A DNA stretch of 64,000 bases from Trichoplax sp. H2 (lineage: Eukaryota): the NCBI GenBank assembly GCA_003344405.1, contig NOWV01000001.1:868001-932000 (forward strand). The letters are read 5' to 3'. The position numbers and the translations under genes were made by a program. The notes beneath the pieces are model-generated. The model was not told the origin of the DNA. It saw only the letters and a program-made list of their open reading frames with translations, and did not search any database. Of this stretch, positions 15,673-60,712 are shown piece after piece; the first letter of the stretch is position 1; each line of letters begins with the position of its first letter.

Positions 15673-18033
15673 TTACTTTATAGGTGCTTTGGTTAGAAAA
15701 AGAACAACAGTTGCTGCGTGTGGGCTTGTAAAACCATTCAGGGTTATCTTGTTTTGATTATTCAATGGATTGGAAATGTGCTGGACAGGAGTGGAGACCT
15801 GCTGAGGCTGTAAACTGCATTCAAGCTTGGCTTGCAGTTTGACGTAACTTGGAACGTTGCAGGTTGTGAAAGATTCGGTAGGAGAATTGCTAGTCAGGCT
15901 ATCGGCAGCTTCTACGCCGTTATGAGATGCTTTTGTGGGCTCTTCACCTTGAATATCTTGTGATATTAGTTGATCCGATGGAGTTTCAATAGTAGTCGCT
16001 TGGTCTGGATTGGAAGGAAAGGCAAACATTATCCATTGACAAATGGCGCAAACTACTTGGTACACACTTGTATCAGGTGGCCGAGAAGAGTCGCTAGTAC
16101 ACTATAGTATTATAATATTATTTCTACGCAGTACAGTACGGTACGGACGTACAACGTGGTGTACAGTACAGTACTGTCATTTGTTGCACAGCGCACACTC
16201 AGTCATTCATGATACACTCGATGCAAGTACAGTGTACAGTATTACGCATTACAGCGTTATACAGTACTGTACTGTACTGTACAGTACATACTGTACAGTA
16301 CAGTACAGTACACGTCAGTACACAGTATACAGTCGTAAGATCGTCAATAATAACAGTAGGCATGGAAAGGTTTACTGTAAATGATAATGATAATACAGAT
16401 ACTGTATACAGTAATATAGATTTATATTAGATTCGGCGACTACTGTAGTGTGCAGTACTGAGAGAGAGAGAGAGCAGTAGTCCCTGTTGGATTCAATCCA
16501 ATAAATCGATAGTAATGAGCGCTTGAAAAATTACTATTAATAATGCATCTACAGTATAAAGTATATTTATACAGTACAGTACATACTGTATTCAAATACT
16601 GTACATCATACTGTACAGTACAGTACAGTACAGTACAGTACAGTACAGTGAACAACTTAACTGCATTGCATCATGCGTCATGCGCAATGCACAATGTGCA
16701 TGCTTGATGAGCCTACACTATATAGTGTACAGTACACGTTGATGGCACTATGGCAGCCAATAATTAATTTCAATTTCAATAATATGAAAATTGATATAAT
16801 GTATAGTACCAAGTTATTAGTTTAGTCATTATATCAGTAATTGCAGTACAGTCATAGAGAAATGGTCAGTGCGACTTTCTATTTGATTGACATCATCTTT
16901 ATGGATAACTTAGCAAATAGGAAATTGAATTAATTTAGGCATCGATCGATGTAACCCAGGAAGCAATCCCCAACTAGTATAGATGCTACACCTTCAGCAC
17001 GATAGACACGTACTCACAAAACGTACTCACAAAATGATAAATTACTGCATAAATAGTCGTGTAGAAGGAAAGAAAGTCGGCAAGAGGCCGCTTATCTGAA
17101 GTTGACTACATAAAGTTGACGATATGCTTGTAGTCTTAAACACTTATAGGAAAGTTTACATCGCATCTGATTTAAGGTTTTTTGTGCATCTAATCTTCTG
17201 CTGTCAAGGTTGCATACGATTTCAAAAAAAATTGTGTCGATGCGGCACATTGCCGGTGGCTACGATATCTTTGAAGCGCTCAGTAACTATTTATATAGCT
17301 AATCACGAAACATCGGCTGAAAATATTCAAATATAAATGCTACGGTTATTCTTTTAAAATATTGTAAAACAAGATCGCGTTAATTCGTTTGATTGCTTGA
17401 ATAGTTTTAGTTACTACTGTACAGTAGATAGGCTCGTAATTTAAATAACAAGTAACATCGCGATACAACTAAGTAGTGTATAGATATATACATGCATATA
17501 AATGCTACAACTATACTAGTCAGTAGTTACTATGTGTTGAACGTTTACATCAACTGCCACTGCTAGATTACGTGAACACCAACTTATTACTGTCAGTTCT
17601 TGGCTAGTATTGCCATGTAATCGTCATCAATAATTCTACGGCGTAATAACAATAACAAAATAACATAAACATCAACATTTGCGGTTGTACAGTTATGTTT
17701 CTCTACGAACTAAACCATACAGAATACAGTCATAGCAATATCGACATTGATTTTTGATTCATCAGTCATTCCAGAAATTGCAACCACTAATTTACCGTTA
17801 AAAGAAATGGTTTTATTTGTACTTCTATTTTGCTGGATTAGTTGCAAGATGGAGAACGGCAAAGAAAACGCTTGTTCCTTGATTACTTTCGTTACATGCT
17901 TATTGTTCATTATGAATACGTCGCTTTGATCTTCGCATATAGCTCGTATTGCAGAATCAACTTTGAGTAATAATTCTGTCGATGCGCTACCTCCTGATTG
18001 AGGATGCGATTGTAGAGAAGTAATTGCTTCCAT
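15673..18033 (-). pseudogene. Unrecognised multi-exon gene or pseudogene
   Basis: Protein-like ORFs at 17710-18033 and 15673-16093 (AG acceptor at 16094-16095). The intervening exon-like segment ~17030-17288 (TERFKDIVATGNVPHRHNFF / EIVCNLDSRRLDAQKTLNQMRC) is broken by a one-base shift in a T8 run. No family recognised; could be two separate units. Confidence 0.3.
16130..16735. repeat. TACAG/CTGTA pentamer cluster (includes a (CAGTA)n run and a (GA)n tract)
   Basis: Dense cagta/tactg words, with a pure (cagta)n run at ~16616-16649. Confidence 0.9.
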
Positions 18034-18889
18034 AAATTAGCGCGAACTAAACACGTTTAACTTGACGGTAAATCAATGTCAGATTGGAAGAATTTTTAAC
18101 TTTGAAAATGACGATAGAGTATAAACAATACGTATATATAATGTTGCTGTATCATACAAGAAGCTTGTTGGACTAAATCTAGACGTCACGGTACAACACT
18201 ACGATACGATTCGCGAGTGTATTAGACATGATCTCACGTAAATAATTAAAATCGCATCGGCATTGTTTTCTTTGGCATAACAATGCATATTCTTGATGGC
18301 GAAAACAATATGACACTGTTAGGAGTATTGTTAACAGCTAGTTGTATTGTAACTACAAGGATTTCTTTCTATATTAACTTCTGCCAATGAGATCGCCCAA
18401 AGAGTAAGTAAAAATTATAAGTTAATAATTATAACTACTCCGTTAATTGATTAAATCGTACATATACATACAATAGCATGGGTCAGAAACTTAGAGAAGT
18501 CCGTGAGACCCTGATTCAGTACAGTAATCAAAACGGCAGTCAGCTTTTGCTATACAGTATGTACTATTAATTCTAATTATTCTAATTACGTCATAATATT
18601 GGCAGTATGTATTCACCTAAAAAGAGTAACGCAATATTTTGAGGGAAGAATGAATCACCTTTCACTATTTCGCTGACCTAAGAGTTGTTAAACTTCGAGT
18701 GATCAGAGAGCAAGAATTGCTAATAGCGATATCAATATATAATTAAATTAGGAGCTCTCTTTTCATAGTCTACTTTAAAACGTGACCATGGCACTGGTAA
18801 TAGCGACTAGAGTCACTAGTCTAGACTATAGATATAGCAGAGATATAAAAATTCCCCTTTCTTATAACTCTATGGTGATTGTAGGCTAT

Positions 18890-19320
18890 ACAGTACAGTA
18901 GACCCAAATCCTTTTTGAATTTATTTTTCATATACCTCGCTGAAATTGCTTTGCCGATAGATTATCTCTTCTGCTAAAAAATTTTTAAAATATTGTCGTT
19001 TATAGTAGTGTACAGTACAGTATAATATGGTGTGAGCCAGTTCTCTTTAAAGTGCTATTAGGCAAAATAATTTGTAGTAAAGCCGCAAAAATTTGCCTAA
19101 ATTTTATATTGATAGTGATGATTTTTTGGGGTAACTTAACCTTAATTAACTACTGTACTGTACACTGTTCTGTACAGTGTACAGTACTGCAGCACACTTT
19201 TACTCGTGCTTCTACAGTACAGTACGCTACAGTGTACAGTACAGTACTGTACCGTACTTCGCAAACTTTGCAAGTTGCAACAATAACACTGTACTGTACA
19301 GTTATTATGTACAGTACGTG
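18890..19320. repeat. TACAG/CTGTA cluster upstream of TMEM14 (putative promoter)
   Basis: Many tactgtac/gtacagta words ending ~60 bp before the TMEM14 ATG. Confidence 0.85.
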
Positions 19321-19378
19321 TAGTATCAATAAAACGTAGAAAAAAATCAACTTTACAGATTCGATCGGAATCTTCAAT

Positions 19379-20479
19379 ATGGCGTCTCCGGATTATTTGA
19401 GCTATACCTACGGAATAATTGTATTGTTAGGAGGTATCAGTGGATATGTAAGAGCAGGTACATACATATATCTAGTGCGTTAGCTGTAAATATAGGCTTA
19501 AACGTAGCGAATAATCTGATAACTAACTACTACAGCACAATTAGCTTTTACACGTATGATTGAGATTGCCTCATTTTGATTTGATTACACTACTGTTAGT
19601 TGGACAGGACAGGACGCCCAGCATTAAGCGATAATACCTAATTTTCATAAATTCTTACCTAGTTATGTCATATACATATACTAATTACTATACCTTATGA
19701 TATTTTAGGTTCCGTTGCCTCTTTGATCTCCGGATTACTTTTCGGCGGCGTCGCTATTTATGGTGCAACAGTCACTAGTAAAAATCCAAGAAACTGCTCA
19801 GTATGCCTAGCAACTGCTTCAGTATTGCTCGCAGTCATGGCTTTTCGGTTTTATAGAACACAAAAACTCATGCCAGCAGGTCTTATAATGTTTCTAAGGT
19901 GAGATATTGCTTGATGACTGCTGATGATATTGGGTGTTACTGGCTCATGCGATGACAGATATACGCGTTCTCATTGCTACATGACATTGTCGTACTAGTA
20001 TGTTATATCGCCAGTATAAGCCTTTAGTCAATCGTTTATTATTCCTTTTTTAGCTGTACAGTATGTATTATTAATAGGGTTAGTATGCATCTGCTACGAT
20101 CACATTACCATTAGTTGCCAGCGTAGGTACACAATGGTGCATTTCACCTGGTATTTTGACCTTAAGATTATTAAGCCAGTGATGATGCAGTAATATAGTG
20201 TTGTGACGGTTGTCTAAGATCTGCAGTACAGTATATGTATTGCAAATTAATGCGCGATATTGAACTGCGAAGTACGCTGCTATTACGAACTGAACGATTG
20301 GGTACTTATACTGTACAAGTAGTTACAGTTCCCTAGGTACAGGAGATAAATTATTTCGAAGTAGGCTGGCTTTAAATTATTATCTAACCTTGAATGTTTC
20401 ATATGAACTTGCTAATGTATGATTTTTGTGTTGTAGCTTACTGCAAGTAACGAGATTACTGGTAGGCCTTAATGAATAG
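19379..20479 (+). CDS. TMEM14: Transmembrane protein 14 family, 3 exons (19379-19457, 19709-19898, 20437-20479)
   Basis: MASPDYLSYTYGIIVLLGGISGYVRAGSVASLISGLLFGGVAIYGA...MAFRFYRTQKLMPAGLIMFLSLLQVTRLLVGLNE* carries the family GG..GY...GS..SL..G and RF....K.MPAG motifs. Confidence 0.93.
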
Positions 20480-21464
20480 GCGTCACGTACGTTCTCATTT
20501 GAATGAAAACTTAAAAGCTTAAAATTAGATTATAATAGTAATTATAGGATAGTCTTCGTAATCAGTTACCTTTTAAAATTGTATACAAATGTTATATCAC
20601 TTGGTAATCTTACTTAAAGAGTCAAGACCATCGCTGTAATCGCCGAGGTTTTACGTTATAATTGATGTGATTGTAATTATAAATCAGTTGTAGAGGCAAA
20701 GCAAAATTATGCAACTTTATCAAATGCGTCTTGGCAAGTATTTTCAGTTTAAATAAAAGATTATGACTCATTTAATTTGTTTTATATTTTAAGAATTTAT
20801 TCGTAGGGTAATGCCCATTTACAGTGTTGGTACAATACGAGTATAAAGTCAAACTACGATGTATAACGTGAATTATCAATAATTTGAGTTTTGGAAATGT
20901 GAGTGTATACAAGGATGTGATATATCATGAAACTCATCTTGAAGATTCTAAACCGCCAATTACTACCATCTTAAGTAATTGTTTATTATACTATGGGTTA
21001 ATTGTATTATTAACCGTACATAACAGGGTCTTTGAAACCCTAGAAATGCTAACACTATTTTAATTCAAACCACTGCATGGAATAGCTATATTAGATAACT
21101 ATCAAGTAGGGATCTCTATTGGTGGAGGAATCGCTGCTATGCGGCTACATCTTCATTCATGTTAATCAAATTAAGTATTAAAAGAATGTACAATATTGAG
21201 GTAAAGTTCTAGATACTGCTGAGGAAGTAGCAAATAAACACACGAATATCAAAACATAAATAAATGACATAGGATTCATGGAATCGTTATTGCTTCCATC
21301 AACACGTATACCCGTATACGAACGCAAGTATACGTATATACGAGTATGTTTATATACATAGTATTCTTGTTTTCATCATGCTCGCATAACATTGCAATTA
21401 GTCGTTTACAAACACTACAAAAATTTAGTGCTGAAAACGATATTCAGATCATAAAGAAGCGATA

Positions 21465-24400
21465 TTAAGAGACCAACAAAGGGCCACTTCCCATCTTCCC
21501 TGGCCACGCTTCCTTAGCATATACTTTATGCTTTTTCGTTGATAAGGTTTCGGAAGCAGAAACTTCATTCATCGGCAAATTACCAGCTGGAATTGGTACT
21601 GAAGGTAATGCTACTTCATCAGGAATAACTGGACCAACATCTGGAGCTGGATTAAGTCGAATAGATGACGTTAATCCAGAGAAAATCGAATATGAACCAG
21701 TTCCTACTCCAGTCATCATATTTGAATCGTCCTGGTCATGTTTGTTAATCGGTAGATTAATATAGTGGTCAGCGCCAGCAATCCCTTCGAAAGTATTCCT
21801 TTCAGTTCGTTGTTTCTAAATTAGATAAAAAATTTACAATAAGGCTAGCTCAGGAATACCTTTAACAAATCTGTAATTAGTAAAAGAACTTATAATATTA
21901 GCTAGGAGATAGAAGAACCAATGATGAAAACATTTGCTACGGAAAAAAGACTAAAATATTTTAGTTCGATAGTGCTTACTTTCAAGGGCACTACTGTTGA
22001 TTGTACCATATTCCTAAATCTCCCAACGCTTGAATCGACATCCTCTGGAAAATTACAAACGATCATCAGTTATGCACTTTATCATAATCTATTATTTTAT
22101 TACATCTACGTCGCATTTGTAACTTAGATTGTATAATAAATCTGCATAAAGGTAACAAATAAGTGAGAATACTTAATTGACAGAAACATTATAGGAGTAC
22201 CTGTTAGCACCTTAATGGTATTGCACGTATAGTTAATTGTAAATATTATATTACGCATAGATGTACGCTATATATGAATACATACCGGGATTTATAATTT
22301 CCTCTTGGCCAAATTGTACCTTTAAGCGAGCTTTATGCTTGCGTTTACCGCTCATTAATATATCGTTAGACTTATCATTTTCAATAACCAAAGAAGAGAT
22401 TCTTTTGTTATGTGCTGTATTATATTCTGTTAGATCCTGAAGGAGCGATTGATAAGCTATTTTACGATTGCAATCTCGTAGACGCATATAGTTTTTATCG
22501 TACATCATATACAGATATACTGGTATCTATTCTTATTTCTATTTATGGTTCATGCGTGCTGTACACGTATATTTTTTTATTAAACACAGGTTTACAGTCT
22601 GTGCAGCACCTATGATGCACTTACATCTAATTCGTTATCATTTTCAGGCAAGGAGAGTAGACTTTTGACAGCGTTATCTTCACTATTGTCGCCACCAACA
22701 GGTATCACTCTTGTCGGAGGCTTTTCTCTTATTACATAACATCGAGTAGAAGCACCAAACAGTATAGTGCTATCTACCGGTAACTGTTGCGGTTTATTTG
22801 CTTCTAACCTTACTGATCCAAGGAATGTCCCGTGCGCTGAAAGTGTAATTATCAGCATTAAATATGTGCATAGGCTTCAATTTACCGTACAACGGATCAT
22901 AAAATAGATGACCAAGTGCCATTCGTGCGAATTCAAGATGTTAAATGCCATGATTTTTACATATTAGAAAAATATTTGCTATAGTGAACACTAATTCGCT
23001 GAGCGTTGAGAAACCGAGTTCGGTACTTTAGCTCTATACTTGAATAACGTTATAAAAGTAATATTAGAAAATTAACACTTACTACTGCCAAGATCCATGA
23101 TGAAAAATCGTTTTAACTGTTTATGGAACACTATTGCACTGTGAACACGAGAGCACGATTCATGGTTAAGAGGAAAATCGCAATTTTCGGAATTACGCCC
23201 AAAGAGGTAATAACTTTTTTCGTCAATTATTAATTTCTAAAATTAAGATAAAAACAAGGGATGAGTAAATAGCAGTATAGTATACTGTTCGTGGTAAAAT
23301 ATTACAAAAATGTAGTCAATACTCGATTTAACAGTCAATTGTCAGGTCTTACACGGAATACTGGTAAGGTAAAGAATGCTTTGATATTATGCGAACAGTA
23401 CAGTGAATGTAGTTACGTTTTTTTATAAATAGAATAAAAATAAAAATAAAAATAAAAGAAAATAATATGTACTGTATATACATAAGTATAATAAATAAAT
23501 CCTTGTACAGTAGGGTACAATGTTTTCAAGATCGGTCGTATGCATTTTAAGTAAGTTGTTAGTGGTAGGCTACTAGGGTGTATATATATTTTGAGGTCAG
23601 TAGTAACTAGCAAGCATTCCTATTAGGAATTTAAATTAGAGTAAACAGATCTGAGAATTTCATTGTCAACATGTACTCGTATGCCTAGACAACTTCTCTA
23701 GTACATATAAGGTCATAGTTTAGAATGTTGTGCAGATCCGGAAACAGCCGTATATCGTATTACAAACTAGAGCAATATAAGGTAAGAGCACGCTGCTTAA
23801 TTATATAATTATTGTACTCGTATGAACGTATACAACATTTAAAGAAATTTACGAACTTGTCCTGGGATATGGTCATTAACACTCTTTATCCAGCAGACAA
23901 GGTTAGAACGTAGAGTTCCACCAATTATAGTACAGTAACTGTACAAGCTAACGTATACAGGTAAGGTATAGTGCACTATACTTATTATATAAATATCATT
24001 ATTACCGATGTTTACCAAATAACTACCAATAGGGTTGAATTACACTAGAATAAAATTCAATTTAAGATTAGAAAAAGTCTTCAAATCGAAGTTATGTAAC
24101 TGATTGTTAACAAGCGTAACAACGTAGTTATGGTAAGTATGAAGTAGAGATGTTCAAATTTTTGCATAAAAAGTACGATAAATTGAGCAATCCTATATTG
24201 TTAAATTTTTTTTTGTATGAAACGTGTATTCAATTAAAGTAGTGATTGTCATACTTCAAATTAGCGCAATCGATTCTCAAGTTAGTGTTGATGTATAATA
24301 TTGGTAGGACTATATTCGTATGATAGTCGAATTACTGCAGAATAATCGTGTATTGACTTCGGATTCCGAAGTGAACAAGAAGGAAGTTGTAAAACACTGG

Positions 24401-25962
24401 TATTAAGTCTGTTGTGCAGAGTGTACAATAAGCATAAGCGTACATTGGATTATATCTATATAATTATTGAATCTTAAAGACAGATGATGCATGTGCGCTT
24501 TTGTAGACAGCATGCTATGAAGTGAATGTTATTACAGTCTGCTGTATTACGCCCGCTCATAAAAGTGGTCACTTTCATTAGTTAGCGAGGCAGTGGATTT
24601 CTTGATTTATTTACTTCAGATATAGCTGTGACTTCCTCATGGTGTGTGTATTTATGTACATTAACATGAATTATACGTATTTCAGACCTTGCTATAAGCC
24701 TGTGACTATCAAATAGTTAGCAATGCAATAATCATATAATGAACTATTGCTGTAGTTCATTTTAAAAATTTTTTTGTCAGCAAATCCTTTGCTTTTATGT
24801 TTTAGGTATAAGAATATTAAGGTTAAGACGTATTGTGGTAATTGATAGGGTATCTTTCTCTTAATCTTTTACTTTAGCATGGATATACTGATTCAATTTT
24901 AGTGATGCTGCTTTTTAATGAAGGGAATTTTAATTCAAAGACATGGTTACAGGAAGACAATGACATCCTGAAATCGAATTAAGGCATAACTGCTACATTT
25001 TGTAACCTTTTGCAGTAAATGCGTTTACTTTAGTACACTATGATACTGTATTGTTAGGGATTACTGTAGAAGTTACAGCGTCGATAACTTGAGACGACTA
25101 CCATCCATTGATGGCAAGTTGATAGCAAGTTGATGAACTGTACTGTACAGTAGATGATTTTAATTTGATGTATCTTATAACGTCATTGACAAGATATACC
25201 GGGTATGTAAGGGCTTCAATACTTTAAAATGATTCCTCTACATTTCAATAAAAAGTATTTCACTGTGTACATCAACTAACTAAATAAGAACATAAAGTTC
25301 ATATTGATTGCAACATGTCTTCCGCTGACTACGCATAGGCTATAATACTTGCTACAAAATATCTTATTGGACTAATTTCATTCCATAATCCTTTTATGAA
25401 AGTTCAAGCATGTCCGTTCTCTTCAAATTGATAATCCATAGTCTATTTTCCTACAGCTGATACAGAAGAGTATTGGTGTACTATTATTTATGTAAAATAT
25501 AATGGCAGATATCGCCTGGATTTATTATATAATCATGGTCAAGACAAGATTTGGACCAAAAGCGCATCCAATTTACTCCAGTGGCCTGGCAAACCAATGA
25601 AATGTATTGTGTCATGTGTAAGCTTGTCAGTGGCCAGTGGCCACTCGGTGGTCAAGTAACAGTAAAAGAGAGCAAAGACATGTATAGGTACTGTATGTAA
25701 CCATACTGTCAATTGAAGTATATGACATACTACATGGTAAACAATTGGTCAATGCATACCTCAACCAAAGTACCATTTTTCATTACATCTAAATGGAAAC
25801 CAGCAGTCGGTTTACCAGCCCTAAATAGGATAGATCAGCCATGAATTACTACTGAACTGGCTATATAGCATTACTGTAAACGATGCCTATATTAATCAAG
25901 TCAATGTTTGAGAAAATTGTAAGCTAACTAACTAACCACTTCGGTGGCTCAAATTTTGCCAT
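21465..25962 (-). CDS. PPP1R8: Nuclear inhibitor of PP1 (NIPP1), FHA domain, multi-exon
   Basis: MAKFEPPKWAGKP..FHLDVMKNG; FHA motifs YLFGRN, HESCSRVHSA, DLGSTHGTF; LTEYNTAHNKRI; RVxF-type KVQF..EEIINPEDVDSSVGRFRNMVQ; C-terminal YAKEAWPGK. Confidence 0.95.
23650..25140 (+). pseudogene. Possible decayed antisense gene fragments inside the 2.5-kb PPP1R8 intron 2
   Basis: Stop-interrupted protein-like reads (DYIRMIVELLQNNRVLTSDSEVNKKEVVKHWY; LSWDMVINTLYPADK|gt; MLLFNEGNFNSKTWLQEDNDILKSN), some with splice-like borders. The intron is far longer than its neighbours. Confidence 0.25.
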
Positions 25963-26070
25963 GTTTATGCAAGAGCCTACGGGCTCGACAACATCAAGCT
26001 GATTAGTCCCCAGTCCAATAATGAATACTGGTAGGCGTTGCGCACGTTTTTAGCCAGGGTTGTGTTACTT

Positions 26071-26750
26071 GTGTACTGTAGTCAGTGTACAGTACAGTAC
26101 AAGTCGAGTCAGCGTTAGGGACTCACAGTACAATATACTGTACAAAACGAGTGCATAGTACGGCACAGTACTGTACAGTAGTACTGTAGTCTCCATCGAG
26201 CAATAGTCAGTGGCTCAGTGCACAAGTCGGAGTTAGCGTTATGCAAGGAGCCAGGGACTCACAGTACAATATACTGTACTGTACAAAACGAGTGCATAGT
26301 ACTGTACTGTACTGTACTGTACAGTACAGTAGTAGTCTCCATCGAGCAATAGTCAGTGGCTCAGTGCACAAGTCGGAGTCAGCGTTAAATACAGTATGCA
26401 AGGAGTCAGGGACTCACAGTACAACATACTGTACAAAATGAGTGCATAGTACTGTACTGTACAGTAGTAGTCTCCATCGAGCAATAGTCAGTGCACATGT
26501 CGAGTCAGCGTTATGGCAAGGAGTCAGGGACTCACAGTACAACATACTGTACAAATTGAGTGCATTGTACTGTACTGTACTGTACTGTACACTGTACAGT
26601 AGTAGTCTCCATCGAGCAATACTGTAGTCAGTGCACAAGTCGAGTCAGTGTTATTATGGCAAGGAGCCAGGGACTCACAGTACAACATACTGTACAAAAT
26701 GAGTGCATAGTACTGTACTGGACAGTACAGTAGTCTCCATCGAGCAATAC
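26071..26750. repeat. Tandem array, ~5 units of ~130-145 bp, TACAG-rich
   Basis: The marker ctccatcgagcaata recurs at ~26191, 26337, 26472, 26607 and 26736; agggactcacagtacaa recurs once per unit. Confidence 0.93.
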
Positions 26751-27065
26751 CGTAGAGTACAGTAGTGTTACTGGACTGCAACATTCGCTACTTAAGTACT
26801 GGGTCGTACAATACAATACCGTACACGGTACACTGTACTGTACAGGGTGGACGGGCTAATTTCTATGATTTTGGTGCAAACGGATGTCACAAGTACAGTA
26901 CAGTAAGTACGGTACGCTCGATGTCATACAAATACTCTCTCTCTTGGTAAGAACACGATCGACATAAAAGAACGTTCTCTTGTGTTCGAACGCGCTCTTA
27001 AACAGTGCATACAGTAAATGCAATGCACTGCACTGTACACTGTACACTGTACTGTACGGTACATG
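26751..27065. repeat. TACAG/CTGTA cluster upstream of DDX24
   Basis: cactgtacactgtacactgtactgtac and related words, followed by CATGCGC. Confidence 0.75.
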
Positions 27066-27190
27066 CGCTATTGGCTTCGGGAGTACAGACGGATAGATTC
27101 AGCTCCACACCAGATTTTTACTTTGGCTCCTTCTCTTCTGTAGTCACTTGAGCCACGCACGCGAACGAGGTAAAAGCATGCTGCCGGTGA

Positions 27191-27280
27191 GTAATGCTGA
27201 ACGAGTGGAATGTTGCTAATTGACTGATGAAATTGGTAATGCTGAACGAGTGGAATGTTGCTAATTGACTGATGAAATTG
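27191..27280. repeat. Perfect 45-bp tandem duplication
   Basis: gtaatgctgaacgagtggaatgttgctaattgactgatgaaattg occurs twice, just after a gtgagt donor (probable DDX24 5'UTR intron). Confidence 0.95.
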
Positions 27281-27419
27281 AATGGTTGAGACCTGAAAAC
27301 TTCATCCACAATTTCAAATATATTATGATTGAATTAAAATGAACTTATTTGCAAAGTAGAATACTCACTTACGGTATCTATCTTATATAACAGGTAGGTA
27401 TCGGCAACATCATTGCAGC

Positions 27420-30400
27420 ATGACGTTCAATATTAAAGGTAAATGGCAGTCTATAGCCATCGATTGCGAAGAAGGTATTGAGCTAGATCAGCTGCAAGGA
27501 TTAGTCTCTTTTGAAGAATTAACCGATTATACTATAACAGATGGTACAGGAAAGGTAATCAATAATAATCATGCTGCTAATACTATCGATGACTAGCTAT
27601 GTAGTTCCAATGAATCCCAACACTTGCTGCGTAAAAGGAGTAATATTATACAAGAAAATACACGTAAAGTAGCTGACGTTGTTCGTTAATGGACTCTAGT
27701 TCTAATGCCATACGTAGTATGCATTTCATCTCAACGATGTGCATGTAATTGTATACAGTACAATATCATCGATCTGCTTTTAAGTTATTGATCTCTTAAT
27801 AAACAGGTCAGCGAAGTGACCAATCGTTCCAAAAATAAATCTGTAAAAAAGGCCCCAAAAAAGGACGCCAATAAAGTTGAAGAAGAAAGTACTGTTGAAA
27901 ATCCACACGATGATGGAAAAGGTAAACTTATTTTCATTCTATACAGTAGAAGCATCTTTACTATAGACACTGGATACTCTTTTTCTCTCTTTGAGTGACT
28001 TTGTCAAGTTTGTCTATACTGACAGCGATTTTGCTTGTAAGTGAATTCTTCAAAGCAAACATCGGGTCATATACTACTGGACGCGTATACTGTACAGTAC
28101 AGTACTAATGCCTATATGTGTAAATGTAGTTGAAAGAACTGTGAAGAGAATCATACTGTAGTTATTTTCTCCTTTATGACCAGCTATATGGCTAATACAG
28201 TACTGTACTACCATGGTAATACGTGTTAAACTTGTATATATATATAGATAACATGAACATGAAAGCATGGGACTCGTTGCAAGTTCCAGAACCTGTCCTC
28301 AAAGCTTTATCCGATATGAATTTTTTAACACCAACTCCCATTCAGTCGCTATCTTTGGTAGCAGCTATCCGTGATAGGAAAGATATCATCGGAGCTGCCG
28401 AAACGGTTTGTTAAATGATATATATACAAGTATTTAGTAAACGTACCACCTATGGTACGTGAATGTAGCTGCAATTAAGATCCAGGTTATACCTATCTAT
28501 CAATAAATTTTTCTATATTTTTGATTATAATGGACAATCGAACTTTACTGATAAGTGTTGGTGATGTATGATTGAAAAAACTTCCTTTACATACAGGGCT
28601 CAGGAAAAACGTTAGCTTATGGGATTCCAATCATTCAACGAATTTTACAACTCAAGGCAGGTAAATTTGGAGACACGTACTTTGCTAGTGCAGCTTTGAA
28701 TTTCTTCGTCGGTAGCTACTAAATTAAGTAATTGATGACGACTTTTAATATTCAAAAATAAATATCAACTCTAGATGGTAAGAAATCGTCAAAAAGAAAG
28801 TGGGACAAAGCAAACGACAAGACAGAAGTGATCAAAGAAACCCCAAGCAAAAAAAGAAAGCATGAAAAAGGAGCAAAACCTACCAGCTCTACAAGTGACC
28901 AAAAATCGTCAAATAAAACTACAGTTGATAATATGGATAATTCGGAAGTTGCGGAAAGCCCTGTATACGCTTTAGTTTTAACGCCCACTAGAGAACTTGC
29001 ACTACAAGTTAGAGACCATTTAAGAAGTGCTGCCAAGTATACCGACCTAAAAGTTAGTCTAAAATACCTACTTGCATTTCAAGAGTGCAAATAAAACCAA
29101 TTATCAGACGTATCTTAATAGCCACGAAAACTTTTCTGCAGATTGAAGCTATTGTCGGTGGAATATCTCAACACAAGCAACAACGACTATTAAACTATCA
29201 GCCTGAAATTATTATTGCGACACCTGGGCGCATGTGGCAGCTATTAAGCGAGGTTTTTTTCTTTTATAAATTCAATTTTTTGAAATAGTAAATTTTCTAC
29301 GGTATATATTTTTTAACCTTTGTGATGTACTTTTTATAGTCTCAATCTTATGTTATGGCATTTAGGGGGAAAGCCATCTACAAACCATAAATAAGCTACC
29401 GTTACTAGTGCTAGATGAAGTTGACAGGATGATAGAATATGGACATTATGCCGAACTATCAGATATACTGGAGAGATTACCGGAACGTCCATTAAGACAA
29501 ACTTTGGTTTATTCAGCTACATTGACCATAAATAAGAATAAAAAAGTAGAAATGAAAAAAAGTGTTAAGAAGAAGTTATCTAATGAAAAAACATTTGGTA
29601 AGTCTAAAATATTTTAGGGATATGTCTGTTTTAATTTTAATTTTTTATGGATAGTCTATAATCATACAGCCACAACAAGTCAGCATTATTTCTCCAGATG
29701 GTATAGTGATAATGCGTTACAGTTGTGGAAAAATAATTTGTGAAATTTTATTCGCGAATTCGATCCTGTTTTAGTTTTGAATTTGCTTTATAAATTTCAC
29801 ACTGCGTTTCCTGAGAGTTGGCTCGAAATGATCGTATTTGAGACCATAGCATAGAAACGCATATCTTGCCTGCTAAAACTTGTAGTGTTAACAAATCGTT
29901 GGTAAAGATATCTAAAATTATGAAAATTTTGGATTGGTATTTATATCATGTGGTAGATTATTAATTCAGTTGATACTTCACGTTTTTACACAGATGCTCT
30001 AATAGAAAAACTTAAACTTGATAAAAAAGTGAAAGTCATTAACCTAATAGAAAAAGATATAACTGTAGAAACTCTTGTAGAAGCACGAATCAATTGCATG
30101 GTTGATGACAAGGTATGATTTTACTGTTACTTTTAAATTTTTACGTATCGTAGCTAGTCTTGAATGAAGAACCTGATAAATAGCCATGTTAAAATTTTTA
30201 TTTCAGTTGAGCTGCTTGTACCTTTTTTGTTTACTTTTTCCTGGTAAAACGTTGGTATTTGCAAATTCGGTATCTTGTATTAAAAAAGTTGTCGATATCT
30301 TCCGCTTATTGGAGCAACCGGCTTATCCACTCCATGCTAAGATGCAACAACGACAGCGTCTCAAAAATTTGGACAGGTTTTATTCAACTACTGTGATTTA

Positions 30401-32042
30401 TATTAACATGCATACATGCGATCATCATTTGATATAAAATTTATGTATATTATAGGTTCAAATCGTCTCCTAGTGGGATTTTATTTTGTACCGATGTCGC
30501 AGCTCGTGGAATTGACATCAAAGATATTAAATATGTTATTCATTTCGAGTTGCCTAAAGCAGCTGAGGTAAGCTATGTGAGATACAGCATAGCTCTATAT
30601 CAGTTATTGCTTCACTAAAAGAATACTTTATGGACAGCTATATGTTCATCGCTGTGGTCGAACGGCTCGCGCTGCTAGCGAAGGTATGAGCATTGCGCTC
30701 CTTAGTCCGAGAGATATACAGTCTTATAGAAATATTACAAAGGTGCTTAATCGAGGTAATTATAAATGGAGACTATAGTCAGGAAGGTTCATCTTGCTTT
30801 GAAGTAAATTTCTACGTTTTTATTTATATCTAATGTAAATATAGATATACCCGAATTTCCTTTGGATCGGTCATTTGAAAGAGATGTTAAGCGCCGGATG
30901 GTCCTCGCCGAACGTATAGTTAGCTTGGAAAAAACGTATGTGTACAATACAGCAATTATTGCATGTGGTATACGAAATACGCGTATGCGCAATTATAAAG
31001 TTATCAACTTATTGATGGTACGTAAATATTTTTCTTAGTTCATCAAGGGAAAAGTCTCGTAAAGCTTGGCTTAAAACAGCGGCCGAGGCCTTAGATGTTA
31101 CGTTAAATGACGAAATGTATCCTAACTAAAATTTGCAGTTGATCTGGTACCTTACCTAACTTAGCAACAGTAACTGAATAGTAAGCAGGATGTATGATCG
31201 ATTGACCGTATACAGTAGTACCTTATAAATTTCTTGCATTTACTTCGTATTGTCTACATGCAATATATTTTCTTGTTGTAAACGTCTTTAACGAATTTCT
31301 AGCGACTTGTCTGTCAATGCAAGATCCGAAAATGAAAATTCAATCAAACTAGCAAGAAGTAAATATTGAATAACTTTTTCAAAATATAACGAATCTATGT
31401 TGCTAACGTAGCATCGTATAATACTCTCCCAACTCCCATTTTTCAGTTTATTGTAACAAACCATATAGGATTAATACTGTAATAGGCATCTCAAAATTAA
31501 ATTAAACGTAAAAGCTGTACTAATGCAGGATGTATATTATCGTATGACAGAGATGCTCACAACGCAGTTGAAATTACCGTTAACAACCCGCAACTTTTCT
31601 GGAAATTTTCCCGCCACAAACGAAATTCTTTCGACTCCTCGTTCCGGTACGTGTAACTTACATAGTTTATGTATAGCTTCAATACATGAAGATTTTCGTT
31701 ATCATGGATACGAGTTTTTTTGTACAGAATCATTTTATAATATTATATATACTGTATATCATCAATAACTCTGAGTGCTTAACAGTGATGATTTTCTCGT
31801 GTTTACAATCCTCAGATGATCCTATTACGCCAAATAAAGATGATAGTATTGCGGGAATAGAGGCTTTAAAAAAGAAGAATAAGCGAAAAACTGCCGCAAG
31901 AAGAGATGATAGTATTGTGGGAATAGAGGCTTTAAAAAAGAAAAATAAGCGAAAAACTGTCACAAGAAGAGATGATAGTATTGCGGGAATAAGAGCTTTA
32001 AAAAAGAAAAAAAAGCAAAAAACTGCCTTCAAGAAGAAATAA
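27420..32042 (+). CDS. DDX24: DEAD-box RNA helicase DDX24 (Mak5), multi-exon
   Basis: N-terminal GLVSFEELTDY; Q motif PTPIQ; DIIGAAETGSGKTLAYGIP; PTRELA; ATPGR; LDEVDRMIEYGH (DEVD); YSAT; LHAKMQQRQRLKNLDRF; TDVAARGIDI; YVHRCGRTARA. Confidence 0.95.
29686..29866 (+). ncRNA. Candidate intronic H/ACA-type snoRNA(s)
   Basis: Three consecutive hairpins in a DDX24 intron, followed respectively by AAAUAA (ANANNA, 29731), ACA (29799) and AUA (29861). G-U pairs favour the + (host) strand. The third pocket UGAGA/AGCAUA is complementary to 18S UAUGCU-UG-UCUCA. Confidence 0.45.
31839..32036 (+). repeat. 3 x 66-bp in-frame repeat in the DDX24 last exon
   Basis: DDSI(A/V)GI(E/R)ALKKK(N/K)K(R/Q)KT.. units start at 31839, 31905 and 31971. 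Confidence 0.95.
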
Positions 32043-32310
32043 GACAGCAAGTCCTGGGAACGAGCATAATGGTCTTTTGTATATATATAAGCTTCAAAGA
32101 AAGATAATTTAATGTTTTTATTTATTTTAAAAAACCATATCACAATTTTAAATAATTTTTCCTTAAAAATAATGTTGGATGACTGAGATAATTTCCTCTA
32201 ATGTGTTAATGTACTGAATTACTGGGAATGATCGCAATTGAGCCCTTACTGCTCCTCTTTATCTGTACAATATATCTGTTTGGAATAAAACACTGGTATA
32301 GATTTATTAC

Positions 32311-34705
32311 TCAATGATCTGATAGTAAGCAGCAAATGCTGGTTAATCTCAAACCGATATTTTCATTGACAACTTCTGTTATCTGAAAGGTTAATGGAAA
32401 AACGTTATTGAAGATTTCTCATCTATGTTCACTTATAGATACGTGCCAAAACTTACAGCATTTGATTCATATTTCCATATCTTGATCCATCCATCTGATA
32501 GGGCAGCAACAACGACATTAGGCATCGTTGGGTTTGACGTTGAGCAGACTTTCATAGCTTTTATCCTAATAATGTACCATTGATCGTATATCAGTCATAT
32601 ATGCGTAAGGACAAATGAATAAATTGGAAATACTAATCGTCATGTACGATAGCAGACAGCTATAATAGACTCTTTAGTTGGGAAATATCGTGTTTCTACA
32701 CACACTAGCGCTAATTTACAGATGCGATTAAAAGTTTGCAAAAAAATAAGTAAATAAATTTGGTTATGAGATACTTGGTATTTCTAGAAATACAATATAC
32801 TCCACCTGCTAGATAATTTTGCTGATTCCGATGAACAACTTTCACTGCTTATTTCATATAATTTCAGAATTGAATTGTCGCCAGTTATTGCTACAATATT
32901 CTCCTAGATATAAAAACGTAAACAATGCACAATTAGCATAGAGCTTCATCTTGTTTGAAAATTTTAACATACCGAGATGAATTGTAGTGAAGTGATTCGG
33001 CTCTGAAAATCCACTTTATGTACAAATGAAGCAGTCTGAAAATTAACGTTAAACATTTAAATCTATTTTAAGTTAACTGCCTAGTCAGTTTTCTGAGTAA
33101 AGTAAGCTTACCTTTAATTCATAAAAAAAAGCCTTATTTTTTACAACTAAAGCGTAAAGATGACCAGAGGGCGACCACTGTACGATGGGTACATCTGGAT
33201 TGGAGAATTTGGTACACAAGTGATGTTTATTTAGATATCAATCACTTTTTATTAAATGAAATTGCAATTACCTTCTTTACAGTTAACAATGTAAGACTGT
33301 CTGCCGGTGACTAGGTTCCATACTCTAAAGTTGGAAAAAGTTGTTAATTAAATAGTATTAATATCGTGTAACAACAAAAGACGCTTGTGTATTGCGATCC
33401 TGCAAACATCAAGGCGGCAGCATACCTACCTCATAGTTTTGTCTTTTGATGTTGTCATAGCCATATTATTTGAAGGGTGCACAGCCAAAGAATTTATAGC
33501 TGATCTTTGAGGAGGGAATTTGATAGTAAATATAAGTTACTCAATCGCAGATATAATTTGAAGGGAGATCCCATACGAAGTCAATATCATACTTGTGTCC
33601 TTTGAAATTTTTCAAGCATTCCCAAGATTTACATTTCCAAATTGTTAGGATACCATCTTCTGCAGTACTTAACAGATGTGATTTTGATGCAAATTCTAAT
33701 CCCGTTACAGTACCTATAGTGTAATGAGGAAAGCATTTCGCATAAAACAAATTTCAAGTTCTCTAGCCTGTAACGAGTAGCAAAGCATTACCGTTGTGAT
33801 GCATCAGAGTTCCTAGCTCTATTCTCTTGTTGAAACTGTATAGCCTGCAATGCAAATCATCACAATTTAATGATCTATTTTATAATACTGCACTGAATTA
33901 TTGACTGTATAACTATGAACTATGCATATTTCGAGGTTGCTGATAAGTGCATGCTGTTGAATTATTTTATATTATACTGTACTGTACTGTATATTCTGTA
34001 TACACGTAAACGTATATAATTATTTACTATTGAATATGCACAATCGATCATCACTACTGAACTATCCATGCACGAGTAATTCAGACTCCTGATGGCATAT
34101 ACTGTATGGGACACTAATAATGTCTGCATAGCATCATATATAGAGAATTGAATGTATCAAATCCTGGATTTGGTTAGTAATTGTAGGATTAGGCCAATTA
34201 TTTGGCCTATTCTTAATGCGTACGTTAATGTATTTGGAAATTCATCGATGCAAGCAGTAGAGAGTATGGCTATTGTCTATTGTGCATATATTATTGCTCC
34301 AACCGTTATAGCAGCGCATCAAGACCTCTTACTGTACGTACTCTATGATCGAATATTCCAAATTTCTATCTTAATATCGCTGACAGAATAAAAATGAATT
34401 CTATCGAAAATAAATGAATAGTACCTAACGCATTCGTCTGTACTACCAGAAGCGAAGTAATCACCGGTAGCAGCAAGGGCCTTCACATTACCAGAATGGT
34501 TTTGATTGGAAAAATCTAATGCAAAATCCTATTTATAGAGGTCAATTTAGAGAGAAATGGATAGCTATAAATGGAAAGCTATGATGTCGCCCAATTCATT
34601 TTTAACATATCATAATAACTAATGCAAAACCTTGCTATCAGAGCTATCAATATCCCAATGGAATCCAAGTACTTGTCCATCATAATCACCCACAATCACC
34701 TCCAT
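32311..34705 (-). CDS. PAK1IP1: WD40 protein PAK1IP1 (Mak11), multi-exon
   Basis: MEVIVGDYDGQVLGF, FASGSTDECVRLY, ELGTLMHHNGTVTGLEF, HLLSTAEDG..IW...WECLKNFKGHK, SLAVHPS, DKTMRVWNLVTGR, VQWSPSG, RIKAM, SDGWIKIW, RLTSI. Confidence 0.92.
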
Positions 34706-34797
34706 CCTGCGGTTGGTTTAGCCTCGATCACACACGGCTTGTGTTGCAGCCTCGACACAAAGTGATGTCACTCGTGACGAATGACTTCCGTCGTTCG

Positions 34798-35210
34798 TAG
34801 TACTGTGCCACGAACTACGGTACTAACTACAGTACTAAAGGTAAGATTTACTGTACTGTACACTGTACAGTACTGTACAGTACATTGTACGGTATAGTGT
34901 TGTACTGTACTGTAGTCCATGACTGCCGCAGAGTCTGTCTGTAGACGTACTGTACGCTAGTGACATTGTTTTTGCTAGCGATTTGGTACAGCGCTTAAAA
35001 AGTAGTCCACGATACTGTATCGCTGTGCACTACGCTAGTACTGTACCATACAGTAAGGTGAAAATGAAAAGCTTATTATTTATCTCTATAATAAACATTG
35101 GTAATTCTAGTTTCAAATATAATGTCGCAATACTGTACAGTGTACAGTCAGGATTTGAACAGTTCAGCACAGTACTGTACTGTACACTGTACACTACAGC
35201 GTACACAGTC
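34798..35210. promoter_or_regulatory. Bidirectional PAK1IP1/RTEL1 promoter region with TACAG/CTGTA clusters
   Basis: About 560 bp separate the divergent ATGs (34705 and 35266); dense tactgtac/gtacagta words at 34850-34915 and 35130-35200. Confidence 0.75.
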
Positions 35211-35265
35211 GCACAAGCAAAATCGAAAATCTCGCGGGCTTGAGAGATATCCAAAAAATGAAAGG

Positions 35266-55505: not shown

Positions 55506-55696
55506 TGTATAACAGCTTGATACGTGTATTAATAGCTTGAACTTCTATACCATAGAAACATAGTACTACGCTGAAAAAATAAAAAAAAAAGGAAATCTGT
55601 CTGAAACTCCAAGTTTAAATCAATATTTTCTCTTCTCTTTGCATTGCCAGGAGTAATTCAAATCGACAGTAGGTTGGTCTTCCAATTTGCCCTACC

Positions 55697-55870
55697 TACA
55701 GTACGGTACTGTACAGTACGCGTTTTCGTCTGGATACATCATTGACACACGTATTATACCATACTGTACCGTAGTGACCTGTCTACAGTACTGTACATAC
55801 AGTAGTCAACCGTCAACGCCCTAGTGTACGTTGTACTGTACTGTAACAGGATATACTGTACACTGTACAC
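55697..55870. repeat. TACAG/CTGTA cluster at the FAM135 5' end
   Basis: Dense tacagtac/gtactgtac words 200-370 bp upstream of the FAM135 ATG. Confidence 0.8.
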
Positions 55871-55935
55871 CGTAGTTTCTGCGGACAGCATCCTAGCCGG
55901 CAACTCTGTACGCATGCCGCTAATTGCTAGGTAAC

Positions 55936-56944
55936 AGAAACAAGCTTCTGCACTTGAAAACCACTCAAAAATAAGTTAGGGTGCTACTACTGTCTTCTTT
56001 CAAGTTCAGAAACAAGCTTCTGCACTTGAAAACCACTCGAAAATAAGTTAGTGTGCTACTACTGTCTTCTTCGAAGGTCAGAAACAAGCTTCCGCACTTG
56101 AAAACCACTCAAAAATAAGTTAGTGTGCTACTACTATCTTCTTTCAAGTTCGGAAACAAGCTACCGCACTTGAAAACCACTCAAAAATAAGTTGGTGTGC
56201 TACTACTGTCTTCTTTCAAGTTCAGAAACAAGCTTCTGCACTTGAAAACCACTCAGAAATAAGTTAGTGTGCTACTACTGTCTTCTTCGAAGGTCAGAAA
56301 CAAGCTTCTGCACTTGAAAACCACTCAAAAATAAATTAGTGTGCTACTACTGTCTTCTTTCAAGTTCGGAAACAAGCTTCTGCACTTGAAAACCACTAAA
56401 AACCACTCAAAAATAAGTTAGTGTGCTACTACTGTCTTCTTCGAATGTCAGAAACAAGCTTCTGCACTTGAAACCACTCAAAAATAAATTAGTGTGCTAC
56501 TACTGTCTTCTTTCAAGTTCGGAAACAAGCTTCCGCACTTGAAAACCACTAAAAACCACTCAAAAATAAGTTAGTGTGCTACTACTATCTTCTTTCAAGT
56601 TCGGAAACAAGTTTCTGCACTTGAAAACCACTCAAAAATAAGTTAGTGTGCTACTACTGTCTTCTTTTTAAGTTCAGAAGCAAGCTTCTGCACTTGAAAA
56701 CCACTCGAAAATAAGTTAGTGTGCTACTACTACTGTCTTCTTCGAAGGTCAGAAACAAGCTTCCGCACTTGAAAACCACTCAAGAATAAGTTAGTGTGCT
56801 ACTACTGTCTTCTTTTTAAGTTCAGAAGCAAGCTTCTGCACTTGAAAACCACTCAAAAATAAGTTAGTGTGCTACTACTGTCTTCTTTCAAGTTCGGAAA
56901 TAAGCTTCTGCACTTGAAAACCACTCAAAAATATGTTAGTGTGC
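55936..56944. repeat. Minisatellite, ~14 x 72-bp units
   Basis: Unit agaaacaagcttctgcacttgaaaaccactcaaaaataagttagtgtgctactactgtcttctttcaagttc starts at 55936, 56008, 56080 and so on. The consensus has stops in all six frames. Confidence 0.97.
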
Positions 56945-57874: not shown

Positions 57875-60502
57875 CTACTGAAGCTTGTTTCGTATGCCTG
57901 ATAAAAAGTCACGGGCAGCGTCTGCCTTAGCTTGTTTCCAATTCTTTCCACCAGTCCATAAATAAAATGATGTTACTAAAGTGATTAACCTTATTAAAGT
58001 TGTGACTGACACATAACAATTTAAAAGTATCGACAACAATAGAAGCCCAATGAATATAAGAATTTTTATTTCATTTTGATATCATGGCAGAAAAATAACG
58101 CATTGTACTTTACCCTCATTCAAATATACGAGAATTATAGGCCGTTGTAAGGAAGATTGAGTAGGAAAGGAAGAAAAAATTGTCATGTTAACAAAGGTTT
58201 ATTGGTCAATGTTGGATTTGATTAATATAGATTAAATTTATGGGTTAATTAATTGAAATTCTCAGAATCGGATATTGATATGTTTACACTGCACAGCAGA
58301 ATAATAGCAATGGCGTATATTTTTCATGATTGTTTTTTAAACCAAACGGCTTAGTAATCTTCTACTACCAAAATGATCTTTTCTAGAGCAATAATTTTAC
58401 ATATACAACGTATATCAGACACGCCGCGAGCATATACTGTTATGATACAAATATTTATAGCGTTCTAGCAGATACGAGCATGTTTCCATACCGTGTAAAT
58501 ATGAAAGCTCTACAATACTTTGCATTTGATTAATAAACAAATAGGAAATCTTATGTTACAAATTACATTGATATTGCATAATTTTTGAAAAGCCAAGAAG
58601 GTGGTTCACTTCTATTCATTATTAAAGTTTAGTGATTTCGATAAAATAAATTTTTTATTGCACCGTTATTCTTCAAATTTTAATTACAAAATGGTTATAT
58701 TTACGAATTCCATACAATAATAAGACGAGGACGAATAATCCCCTAAAAGACATTAGTGACTATTATTATTTTGTAAAAGTTCTACTGAGTAAACTAAGTT
58801 ATTGCTAATATCATATGCGTGGGTGTTATTTTCTTGAAAAAACTGAAGCAATTAATTTCCTACTCACAGTCAATAAAAATACAAAAAACTACGTAATACT
58901 CAAAGCCATCGGTCTATCAAGAATGTATTCCAATTGTCAAGGATAAACGTGATTTCTATCATTGGAACACGACAGCCCCTTAATATTATGGTAGCAACGA
59001 ACAAGAAAGTGAATTGAACAATAAGATGTCTGCATTTTTAGCCCTTCCAATTGATCTGCTATTTATAGCGGCGAACGTAATTGTGATTTTAATTACAAAA
59101 TAATCACTAGTTAACTGTATAGAGATTGATAATAATTGAGGATGAATTTTTTTATCCACAATAGGCGCATGGATAGGTTAAAGCAATAATTGCAATTATA
59201 GCTATCGTCCTTAATACGTACACATGTATAATATTGTCAGCCGTACAGTATCAGACAAGTAGAGTAAGAATCAGATATTTAGCTACTGAATGACTCTGAT
59301 ATGGGTTATATGGGATATCTTCCTTTTAAAAGTAAAATTTTGCAGTAATATGCGTATCTGCAGTACAACTGTACAATGAGTGTACGTATATGTAATGCAC
59401 AATGTACTCGTAGAGGTGTCCATTTTACAGTACTGTGCACTAGATGGTTGATTCTCGAGACTATATTTTGCTAAAGAATTCGATACTTGCTGTACTTTTG
59501 CAGGTTGTAACGGAAAATTATGATATTGTGCTCGTACTTATTAGTGATACTATAAAGTAGAGTATTGTGAAATGACAAAATAGACAGCATAAATCGCACA
59601 CGAAGCTAAAATCGACAATATCAAATCTTGGAGGATATCATCGACATCATCACCTATCCATCGACCAAACTCACCTGTCCATTGACAAATTACTAGAAAG
59701 AGACCAAATGATCCTTGATGTAATATTAATGGTTCTCAATAAAACACAACGTCCTCGATGCACTGTCGAACTGATACTTTATTGCTCGAGCCACATGCAT
59801 GCAGACACCGATATCTAGACTGACGTTCTACATACGAACACAGATGTAAATTGAACATTAAGAGTAAGATATCAGTCAGAACTATAGGCAGTTTTAAACC
59901 TGTTATTACCTTACCAAAGATAAACTATGATAATATTACAGTAACATTACGTTGGTCTCGCAATAAGCCAATCAGATCGTGTATAGGTACATCTACACTA
60001 GGTATATTGTACAATAGGCCCCCGCCAATTTATAAAAAGTTTTAAGAATACTTAGCTGAAACTATCGTACTAACGCATCAGAATTATTAGAAGCACCTCC
60101 ATGTAAAATTATGATCACATTCTGGTGATTCTCTCTGCAAATGAAATGGTATGAAACCGTATGAAATCCTATTGCACAAAGCAACCTAGCATCTAATTTG
60201 GACTATCGTACTAACGCATCAGAATTTTTATTAGCATCTCCATGATCACATTCTGGTGATTCTCTCTGCAAATGAAATCGTATGAAACCGTATGAAATCC
60301 TATTGCACAAAGCAACCTAGCATCTAATTTGGACTATCGTACTAACGCATCAGAATTTTTATTAGCACCTCCATGTAAAATTATGATTACATTCTGGTGA
60401 TTCTCTCTGCAAATGAAATGGTATGAAACCGTATGAAATCCTATTACGCAAAAGCAATCTAGCATTTAATTTGGATACATCGGTCGCGGACATCGCGGAC
60501 AT
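57875..60502 (-). CDS. Putative divergent (possibly decayed) SCAMP-like membrane protein gene with many short exons
   Basis: Colinear exon-like pieces: MSAMSATDVSKL...HLQRESPE; VPIHDLIGLLRDQ/HIGVC; QWTGEFGRWIGDDVDDILQDLILSIL; GLFVLVLLLYGI(Q); PIILVYLNE/VTSFYLWTGGKNWKQAKADAARDFLSGIRNKLQ*. These resemble SCAMP DFGLSIL, FFVFFFVYICQ and [24 protein letters not shown]. I could not build one fully phase-consistent model. Confidence 0.35.
60061..60473. repeat. Tandem triplication, ~141/131/141-bp units
   Basis: actatcgtactaacgcatcagaatt...gcaacctagcatctaatttgg starts at 60061, 60202 and 60333. Confidence 0.95.
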
Positions 60503-60539
60503 AGCGGACAGCGTACCGTCGCAGCGTCGATCTTTTTCT

Positions 60540-60712
60540 ACTGAGTGTACAGTACATACAGTACAGTACAGTGTACTGTACACTCAGTGTACTGTACTGT
60601 ACAGTACAGTAGGGAAAACTGGCTACGGTAAAAAGAAAAGAAAAAGCTCCTTGCCTCTGTACAGTACCGTACAGTGTACAGTGTACAGTGTACAGTACAC
60701 TGAGTACAGTAC
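60540..60712. repeat. TACAG/CTGTA cluster between the SCAMP-like (-) and AHI1-like (+) 5' ends
   Basis: Dense gtacagtaca/gtactgtac words. Confidence 0.85.

Follow-up and report, generated by a model that had tools for sequence, protein, structure and literature searches.

In the placozoan Trichoplax adhaerens, 2,978 genes have been classed as GP1, a set of housekeeping genes with peaks in the assay for transposase-accessible chromatin (ATAC) and in trimethylated lysine 4 of histone H3 (H3K4me3), the promoters of which are joined in hubs by chromatin loops (Kim et al. 2025; PMC12221973). According to the text of that account, 3,557 loop anchors are enriched in a motif that orthologous promoters of four placozoans carry as well, about a third of the genes are found in promoter hubs, and the placozoans are without CTCF. 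The motif is further described there as being contained in the terminal inverted repeats (TIRs) of Mutator elements, annotated with EDTA, that are frequent in GP1 promoters, with the choice between domestication and targeted integration left open by its authors (PMC12221973). In a second study (Chimaera, 2026; PMC12817080), a neural network on Micro-C data from T. adhaerens linked the “repeating motifs ACGG and ACAGT” to insulation, which the model puts at gene starts. Here, a 64,000-nucleotide stretch of Trichoplax sp. H2 (GCA_003344405.1, contig NOWV01000001.1, positions 868,001 to 932,000 of the forward strand; 33% G+C), hereafter the window, was analyzed for six dense clusters of a short repeat, (GTACW)n, where W is A or T. 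The clusters are real and mark gene 5′ ends in the window, and, as far as the published sentence describes it, they are the repeating ACAGT motif of T. adhaerens (PMC12817080).

The arrays and the ACAGT motif share the same five-base repeat (ACAGT being a rotation of both TACAG and GTACA), and arrays of period 5 are present in the window; they differ in that the motif is given one sentence in the available text of PMC12817080, with the GTAC core, the switching of A and T spacers, the distance to the ATG, and the gene classes not described there. The GP1 motif, in the text of Kim et al., is alike in being lineage-specific and in occurring at the housekeeping promoters of about one third of genes, often in collinear or divergent clusters, a class that the array-bearing genes fit. 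It differs in that PMC12817080 equates it with ‘ACGG’, whereas ACGGT/ACCGT is a minority within the window arrays, and in that the window has no Mutator hallmarks. On what both accounts state of their motifs, the arrays very likely belong to, or adjoin, the motif that Kim et al. describe at housekeeping promoters and loop anchors. Beyond PMC12221973 and PMC12817080, no further literature on the GTACW repeat in Trichoplax was found, and none pairing ‘Trichoplax’ with ‘ACAGTACAGT’. The base-level anatomy (GTAC core, A/T spacer, periods of 5 and 7, strand mixing, and a distance of 60–200 bp to most ATGs) is absent from the available text of the published accounts; what the window adds is this GTAC-plus-W anatomy with its strand mixing, a polymorphism in unit length, and a lack of transposon hallmarks within the window itself.

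Anatomy and position of the arrays

The word GTACWGTAC occurs 82 times in the window, compared to a mean of 0.48 expected from 100 dinucleotide-preserving shuffles (maximum, 3; 0 of 100 reach 82), while TACAGTA/TACTGTA occurs in 209 copies, compared to approximately 15 expected from base composition, concentrated at six places; TACTGTACAGTA has 13 copies. No GTACWGTAC lies ahead of position 14619, the first 14.6 kb being without any. All six clusters described in a first-pass annotation of the window were present, and 68 of the 82 matches fall inside them, although together they span just 2,792 bp (4.4% of the window). They are listed below, without strand, with the number of GTACWGTAC matches in each.

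16130–16735, array cluster 1: 18 matches, with blocks of (GTACW)n at 16131–16311 and 16574–16735; upstream of TGS1 (minus strand)
18890–19320, array cluster 2: 9 matches; stops 62 bp short of the ATG of TMEM14
26071–27065, array cluster 3: 19 matches; flanked by PPP1R8 and the DDX24-like gene, which are divergent
34798–35210, array cluster 4: 9 matches; takes up most of the 561 bp that separate the divergent PAK1IP1-like and RTEL1-like ATGs
55697–55870, array cluster 5: 4 matches; upstream of FAM135, at 201 bp from its ATG (55505, minus strand)
60540–60712, array cluster 6: 9 matches, with a period-7 run of GTACAGT ×4 at 60669–60696

The unit had been described as a palindromic TACAG pentamer, a description that is replaced here: the repeat consists of the palindrome GTAC followed by a single A/T spacer, with successive GTACs spaced by 5 (88 cases) or 7 (21 cases) bases and single-base spacers that are nearly always A or T, in equal numbers (A, 41; T, 41; G, 4; C, 2). 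GTAC itself has 435 copies in the window, compared to 178–321 for the palindromic tetramers of equal composition, TGCA excepted, and the most specific word, ACTGTAC/GTACAGT, is 47-fold enriched (111 copies within clusters, 51 elsewhere). Tandem Repeats Finder recovered period-5 arrays in clusters 1, 2, 3, 4, and 6. GTAC reads identically on both strands, so that (GTACA)n on one strand is (GTACT)n on the other with the register unchanged and GTACAGT/ACTGTAC words arise on either strand, and the head-to-head CAGTA/TACTG words remarked upon in the first-pass annotation, which are indeed present, are therefore the junctions between A-runs and T-runs, that is, spacer switches between GTACs. These switch points form perfect palindromes. 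In order, the spacer strings of the seven arrays are AAATTTAAAA, AAAAAAAA, ATAAAATTA, AATTTTTTATTTTTTTTA, TATATTTTT, TATT, and AATTTAAAA. A variant with a G/C spacer, TACCGTA/TACGGTA, is 12-fold enriched, occurs in all six promoter regions, and is the next most enriched word, the only candidate for a second motif common to the promoters apart from the word GCGGACA (below); in its longer form (GTACSGTAC, where S is G or C) it has 6 copies, all within clusters, compared to 82 of GTACWGTAC. The repeat (ACGG)n as such was not found in the window (ACGGACGG, 0 copies). An Rfam scan returned no family in the window, and the clusters are therefore not known RNA genes.

The distance from a verified start codon to the nearest array of at least four matches was 102 bp for TGS1, 62 bp for TMEM14, 125 bp for PPP1R8, 519 bp for the DDX24-like gene, 148 bp for the PAK1IP1-like gene, 81 bp for the RTEL1-like gene, and 201 bp for FAM135. 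Six of these seven ATGs are thus ≤201 bp from an array, compared to 7.6% of the window lying within 210 bp of one. The placing of clusters at the 5′ ends of TMEM14, PPP1R8/DDX24, PAK1IP1/RTEL1, and FAM135 by the first-pass annotation stands (ATGs at 62–519 bp), with the SCAMP-like/AHI1-like labels that it gave at cluster 6 finding no support; its view of TGS1, as showing no more than a weak trace, does not hold, the TGS1 ATG (16029) belonging with cluster 1, which had been left unassigned and so is at a 5′ end as well. The words of cluster 4 (34798–35210) leave 93 bp to the PAK1IP1-like ATG and 56 bp to the RTEL1-like ATG, so that the core promoters of both genes must touch or overlap the array. 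All of the array-bearing genes (TGS1, TMEM14, NIPP1/PPP1R8, DDX24-like, PAK1IP1-like, RTEL1-like, and FAM135) are of housekeeping type, as judged by gene identity and not by expression, and the start of a signaling gene with an RGS domain (annotated ATG at 719) is without an array, with no GTACNGTAC in positions 1–2500. At the four tail-to-tail junctions there is at most one copy each (e.g., GTACAGTGTAC at 10950 and GTACTGTAC at 43587), in agreement with the isolated copies reported earlier. Introns make up much of the non-coding DNA of the window, yet hold scattered single copies only.

Several other repeats occur in or next to the clusters. A (GA)7 run at 16462–16476, in cluster 1, is the sole other simple repeat seen within the arrays. 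Cluster 3 contains a tandem repeat of approximately 130/261 bp at 26117–26749 in which pentamer runs are embedded (Tandem Repeats Finder), and between this cluster and the DDX24-like ATG is a perfect tandem duplication (45 bp ×2, 27191–27280) that is probably 5′ untranslated region or promoter. Cluster 5 is directly adjoined, on the side away from the FAM135 ATG, by a 72-bp minisatellite at 55935–56944 (13.7 copies, 87% match), which separates the FAM135 promoter from the next gene. Directly upstream of cluster 6 are a 131-bp tandem repeat (2.7 copies, 60111–60475) and three copies of a 9-bp unit, TCGCGGACA (60484–60510). The word GCGGACA occurs at clusters 5 and 6 (at 55881 beside cluster 5), and its reverse complement near the RTEL1 start (35280).

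A candidate binding platform at housekeeping promoters

With a confidence slightly better than even, the arrays are taken here to be a multivalent, strand-symmetric binding platform that would serve as a promoter element and an architectural element at once, by way of putative protein binding, open chromatin, and hub formation. The arrays of this placozoan tandem repeat sit in the short gap upstream of the ATGs of broadly needed genes, a gap often common to a divergent pair, where a sequence-specific factor may read the GTAC-centered word as a dimer or oligomer; its binding would keep the promoter open and let array-bearing promoters contact each other in hubs. The first-pass annotation had already proposed a housekeeping promoter mark, a reasonable reading, though the idea is largely in print already; its mechanism is what we infer. 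The exact DNA element at hub promoters would be a first step toward the protein that builds the hubs. Should the anatomy hold genome-wide, it would supply a precise bait for pulldown or DNA affinity purification sequencing (DAP-seq) and would call into question the description of the element as a transposon end.

Promoter sequences of low complexity that keep broadly active promoters open include the (GA)n microsatellites bound by GAGA factor in Drosophila and the CpG islands of vertebrates, with which the placozoan arrays would be alike only in the way of working, the sequence being different. Heat-shock elements are built from contiguous 5-bp nGAAn units, the orientation of which alternates and to which an oligomeric factor binds, and are short and inducible. 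They share with the arrays a modular 5-bp unit, switches of orientation within the array, and multivalency, but differ in the unit itself (nGAAn compared to GTACW) and in setting, as the window arrays span 100–800 bp at housekeeping promoters. We know of no binding factor for the placozoan arrays. A preprint on transposon-derived transcription factors counts nine in Trichoplax, with no FHY3, and its available text gives no lead to a binding factor.

A number of observations weigh against the arrays being such a platform. The DDX24-like ATG is far from its chain of arrays (519 bp), and 14 of the 82 GTACWGTAC matches are outside the clusters, mostly in gene bodies, though most of these occur in the 5′-proximal parts of array-bearing genes (e.g., intron 1 of TGS1 and the DDX24-like gene over its first 800 bp). 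The RGS start, taken from an annotated gene model, is the sole array-less start in the window, giving ‘housekeeping only’ a sample of n = 1, and the relations of cluster 6 to its flanking genes depend on unconfirmed labels. The metagenome arrays used below for comparison are of uncertain organism and many come from similar contig series, and hence are non-independent. As for the published motif, its letters are given in figures of PMC12221973 and not in the text (‘gtac’ and ‘acagt’, 0 occurrences) or in three of its spreadsheets (‘tacagta’ and ‘gtacag’, 0 occurrences), and PMC12817080 assigns ACGG to a transposable element already tied to insulation by Kim et al. The motif of Kim et al. and ACAGT may, on these accounts, be distinct, although ACGGT variants sit inside the window arrays.

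Strand mixing, length differences, and transposon hallmarks

A and T spacers occur together in all but one of the seven window arrays, with minor-spacer fractions of 0.30, 0, 0.33, 0.22, 0.22, 0.25, and 0.33. For comparison of array structure only, metagenome contigs were scanned for five GTACs with W spacers, giving 117 arrays from at least 114 loci; among the matches listed, one spacer type runs through the whole of 73.5% of these non-independent arrays, with a mean minor fraction of 0.046, a difference from the window arrays that is significant (Mann-Whitney p = 7.6e-5). Among the same matches, the metagenome (GTACW)n arrays are long and mostly of one orientation, with up to 106 GTACWGTAC in one 2-kb contig, and occur in contigs with a G+C content of 34–63%.

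The length of the arrays is variable. Compared to the window, a sequencing run (X1) has one extra 5-bp unit at 18552 (TACTG) and another at 19295 (GTACA), as slippage would give and in keeping with microsatellite behavior. Arrays would in this manner lengthen and shorten by one unit per step, and strand switching could arise via template switching, eased by the palindromic core. Over 15651–35650 (20 kb), the baseline summed depth of run X1 is approximately 76 and is even over introns and intergenic DNA, so that the run behaves like DNA. In the array bins, the summed depth is 5,921, 2,045, 11,471, 3,256, 1,315, 7,475, and 805 (4,513 contigs placed), far above the baseline, and the repeat is therefore present at very many loci.

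These length differences, along with the tandem structure of period 5 and the presence of GTACW microsatellites at 114 or more unrelated metagenome loci, are what would be expected if the arrays were neutral microsatellites that persist where there is room, most non-coding DNA without splicing constraints in this compact genome being in the upstream gaps. Such neutrality is quite improbable. The arrays are not ordinary microsatellites, in that they are strand-mixed, unlike generic arrays of the repeat, and their G/C spacers are rare though transitions, A-to-G changes among them, should commonly produce them. Further, introns have no more than scattered single copies, no other microsatellite builds up in the gaps save for one short GA run, and the published models, as described in their text, link ACAGT repeats to contact-map features.

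Strand mixing of a kind that ordinary arrays of the repeat lack is also what inverted-ended elements would show, and runs of the two spacers, A and T, give inverted repeats as long as 37 nucleotides. The arrays could on this evidence be the TIRs or remnants of DNA transposons of the Mutator/foldback type inserting into open promoters, in which case the link to promoters would reflect the insertion site and not function; targeted integration is one reading of the Mutator elements, with the loop-anchor motif in their TIRs, that GP1 promoters often hold in the text of PMC12221973. The inverted repeats, however, follow automatically from the palindromic core, and the remaining evidence makes this origin unlikely. 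None of eight inverted run pairs is flanked by a direct repeat of 8–11 bp (0/8, compared to 33 of 2,000 random position pairs), and no transposase family of Pfam was found among the 222 open reading frames (ORFs) of at least 55 amino acids in the window. With the pentamer words masked, each of the six promoter regions matches just the tandem repeats local to it, and neither another of the regions nor any other part of the window. The hallmarks of Mutator elements (a target-site duplication of 9–11 bp, shared internal sequence, and a transposase gene) are absent from the window, which has neither a transposon body nor target-site duplications. The one-unit differences of run X1 are likewise the behavior of a microsatellite, and inverted microsatellite runs could be called as TIR elements by annotators that work from structure.

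As these hallmarks are absent, the ‘Mutator TIR’ annotation possibly describes inverted microsatellite runs. Extending the binding platform to the published loop anchors, a tentative proposal, possible rather than probable, is that the ‘Mutator TIR’ motif found there is the strand-mixed (GTACW)n family with its ACGGT variant and not a transposon end. A self-renewing palindromic microsatellite would then be the element of housekeeping promoters and promoter hubs, a putative oligomeric factor would read the GTAC-centered word, and the length of the array would tune the strength of the hub.

The arrays might instead act via the DNA itself, through cruciform extrusion under transcription-driven supercoiling, through exclusion of nucleosomes, or as bidirectional initiator-like CAGT cores with dispersed starts. 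As single strands, seven of nine array segments fold better than their shuffles (z = −2.5 to −5.3), one of them with a perfect 22-bp stem (16264–16311), while the other two fold no better, and a repeat based on a palindrome folds well by construction. Every unit carries CAGT/ACTG, and the CAGT core resembles the core of the arthropod initiator. In an RNA-labelled run (X11), the summed depth is raised on array bins (98, 43, 97, and 64; 206 contigs placed, many with unrelated flanks), only a hint that the arrays are transcribed, as such libraries can hold DNA and their contigs do not show transcript starts. An action through DNA structure or initiation is improbable as the explanation of the arrays.

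Neighboring genes and reading frames

The gene map was based on Pfam scans of the 222 ORFs, tblastn of two proteins, one PDB match, splice joints present in contigs of the sequencing runs, and a direct reading of N-terminal exons. The window encodes proteins 99–100% identical to TRIADDRAFT_58107 (TGS1) and TRIADDRAFT_58106 (RGS-domain protein) of T. adhaerens.

719 (annotated ATG) to 10530, plus strand: RGS gene TRIADDRAFT_58106, with its upstream region from 1; annotated gene model and tblastn
15676–16029, minus strand: first coding exon of TGS1 (TRIADDRAFT_58107), ATG at 16029; tblastn
17713–18036, minus strand: conserved unnamed ORF of 108 amino acids, between clusters 1 and 2
19379–19896, plus strand: 5′ part of TMEM14, ATG at 19379; Pfam Tmemb_14 exon at 19663–19899 and intron 19897–20434 as a GT..AG joint
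25760–25962, minus strand: 5′ coding region of PPP1R8/NIPP1, ATG at 25962; spliced exons further down from CT..AC joints
27420–27593, plus strand: first coding exon of a DDX24-like DEAD-box helicase, ATG at 27420; Pfam, exon read directly
34606–34705, minus strand: first coding exon of a PAK1IP1-like WD40 gene, ATG at 34705; Pfam, exon read directly
35266–35370 (end approximate), plus strand: first coding exon of an RTEL1-like helicase, ATG at 35266; Pfam, exon read directly
55505 (ATG), minus strand: FAM135; Pfam, exon read directly

The FHA exon of PPP1R8/NIPP1 matches PDB 2jpe (E = 1.8e-16). Near cluster 6, the SCAMP-like and AHI1-like labels were without support from PDB, homologue, and Pfam searches: the ORF at 59550–59735 (minus strand) had 0 PDB matches and no homologue at E ≤ 0.001, and Pfam on 44 ORFs in the 57–64 kb region gave nothing above noise at E up to 1.

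The ORF at 17713–18036 had no family assignment and no significant match in PDB (best E = 0.12). It has one metagenome relative of 82 amino acids (51% identity), as well as four weak matches to unrelated long proteins, and its area is covered by RNA-run contigs. It is probably a lineage-specific coding exon, and possibly an unannotated placozoan-specific gene.

Within TGS1, residues 131–482 of TRIADDRAFT_58107 align to the window (12876–14231, minus strand) at only 73%, at a site where the window has a 120-bp ×2 repeat (13244–13487), and in the TGS1 protein cluster the Trichoplax sp. H2 protein is 855 amino acids compared to 725. This discrepancy is probably due to the old gene model or to a difference in repeat number. 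A 66-bp ×3 tandem repeat (31838–32037, 91% match), in an ORF close to the 3′ portion of the DDX24-like gene, would encode a lysine-rich repeat.

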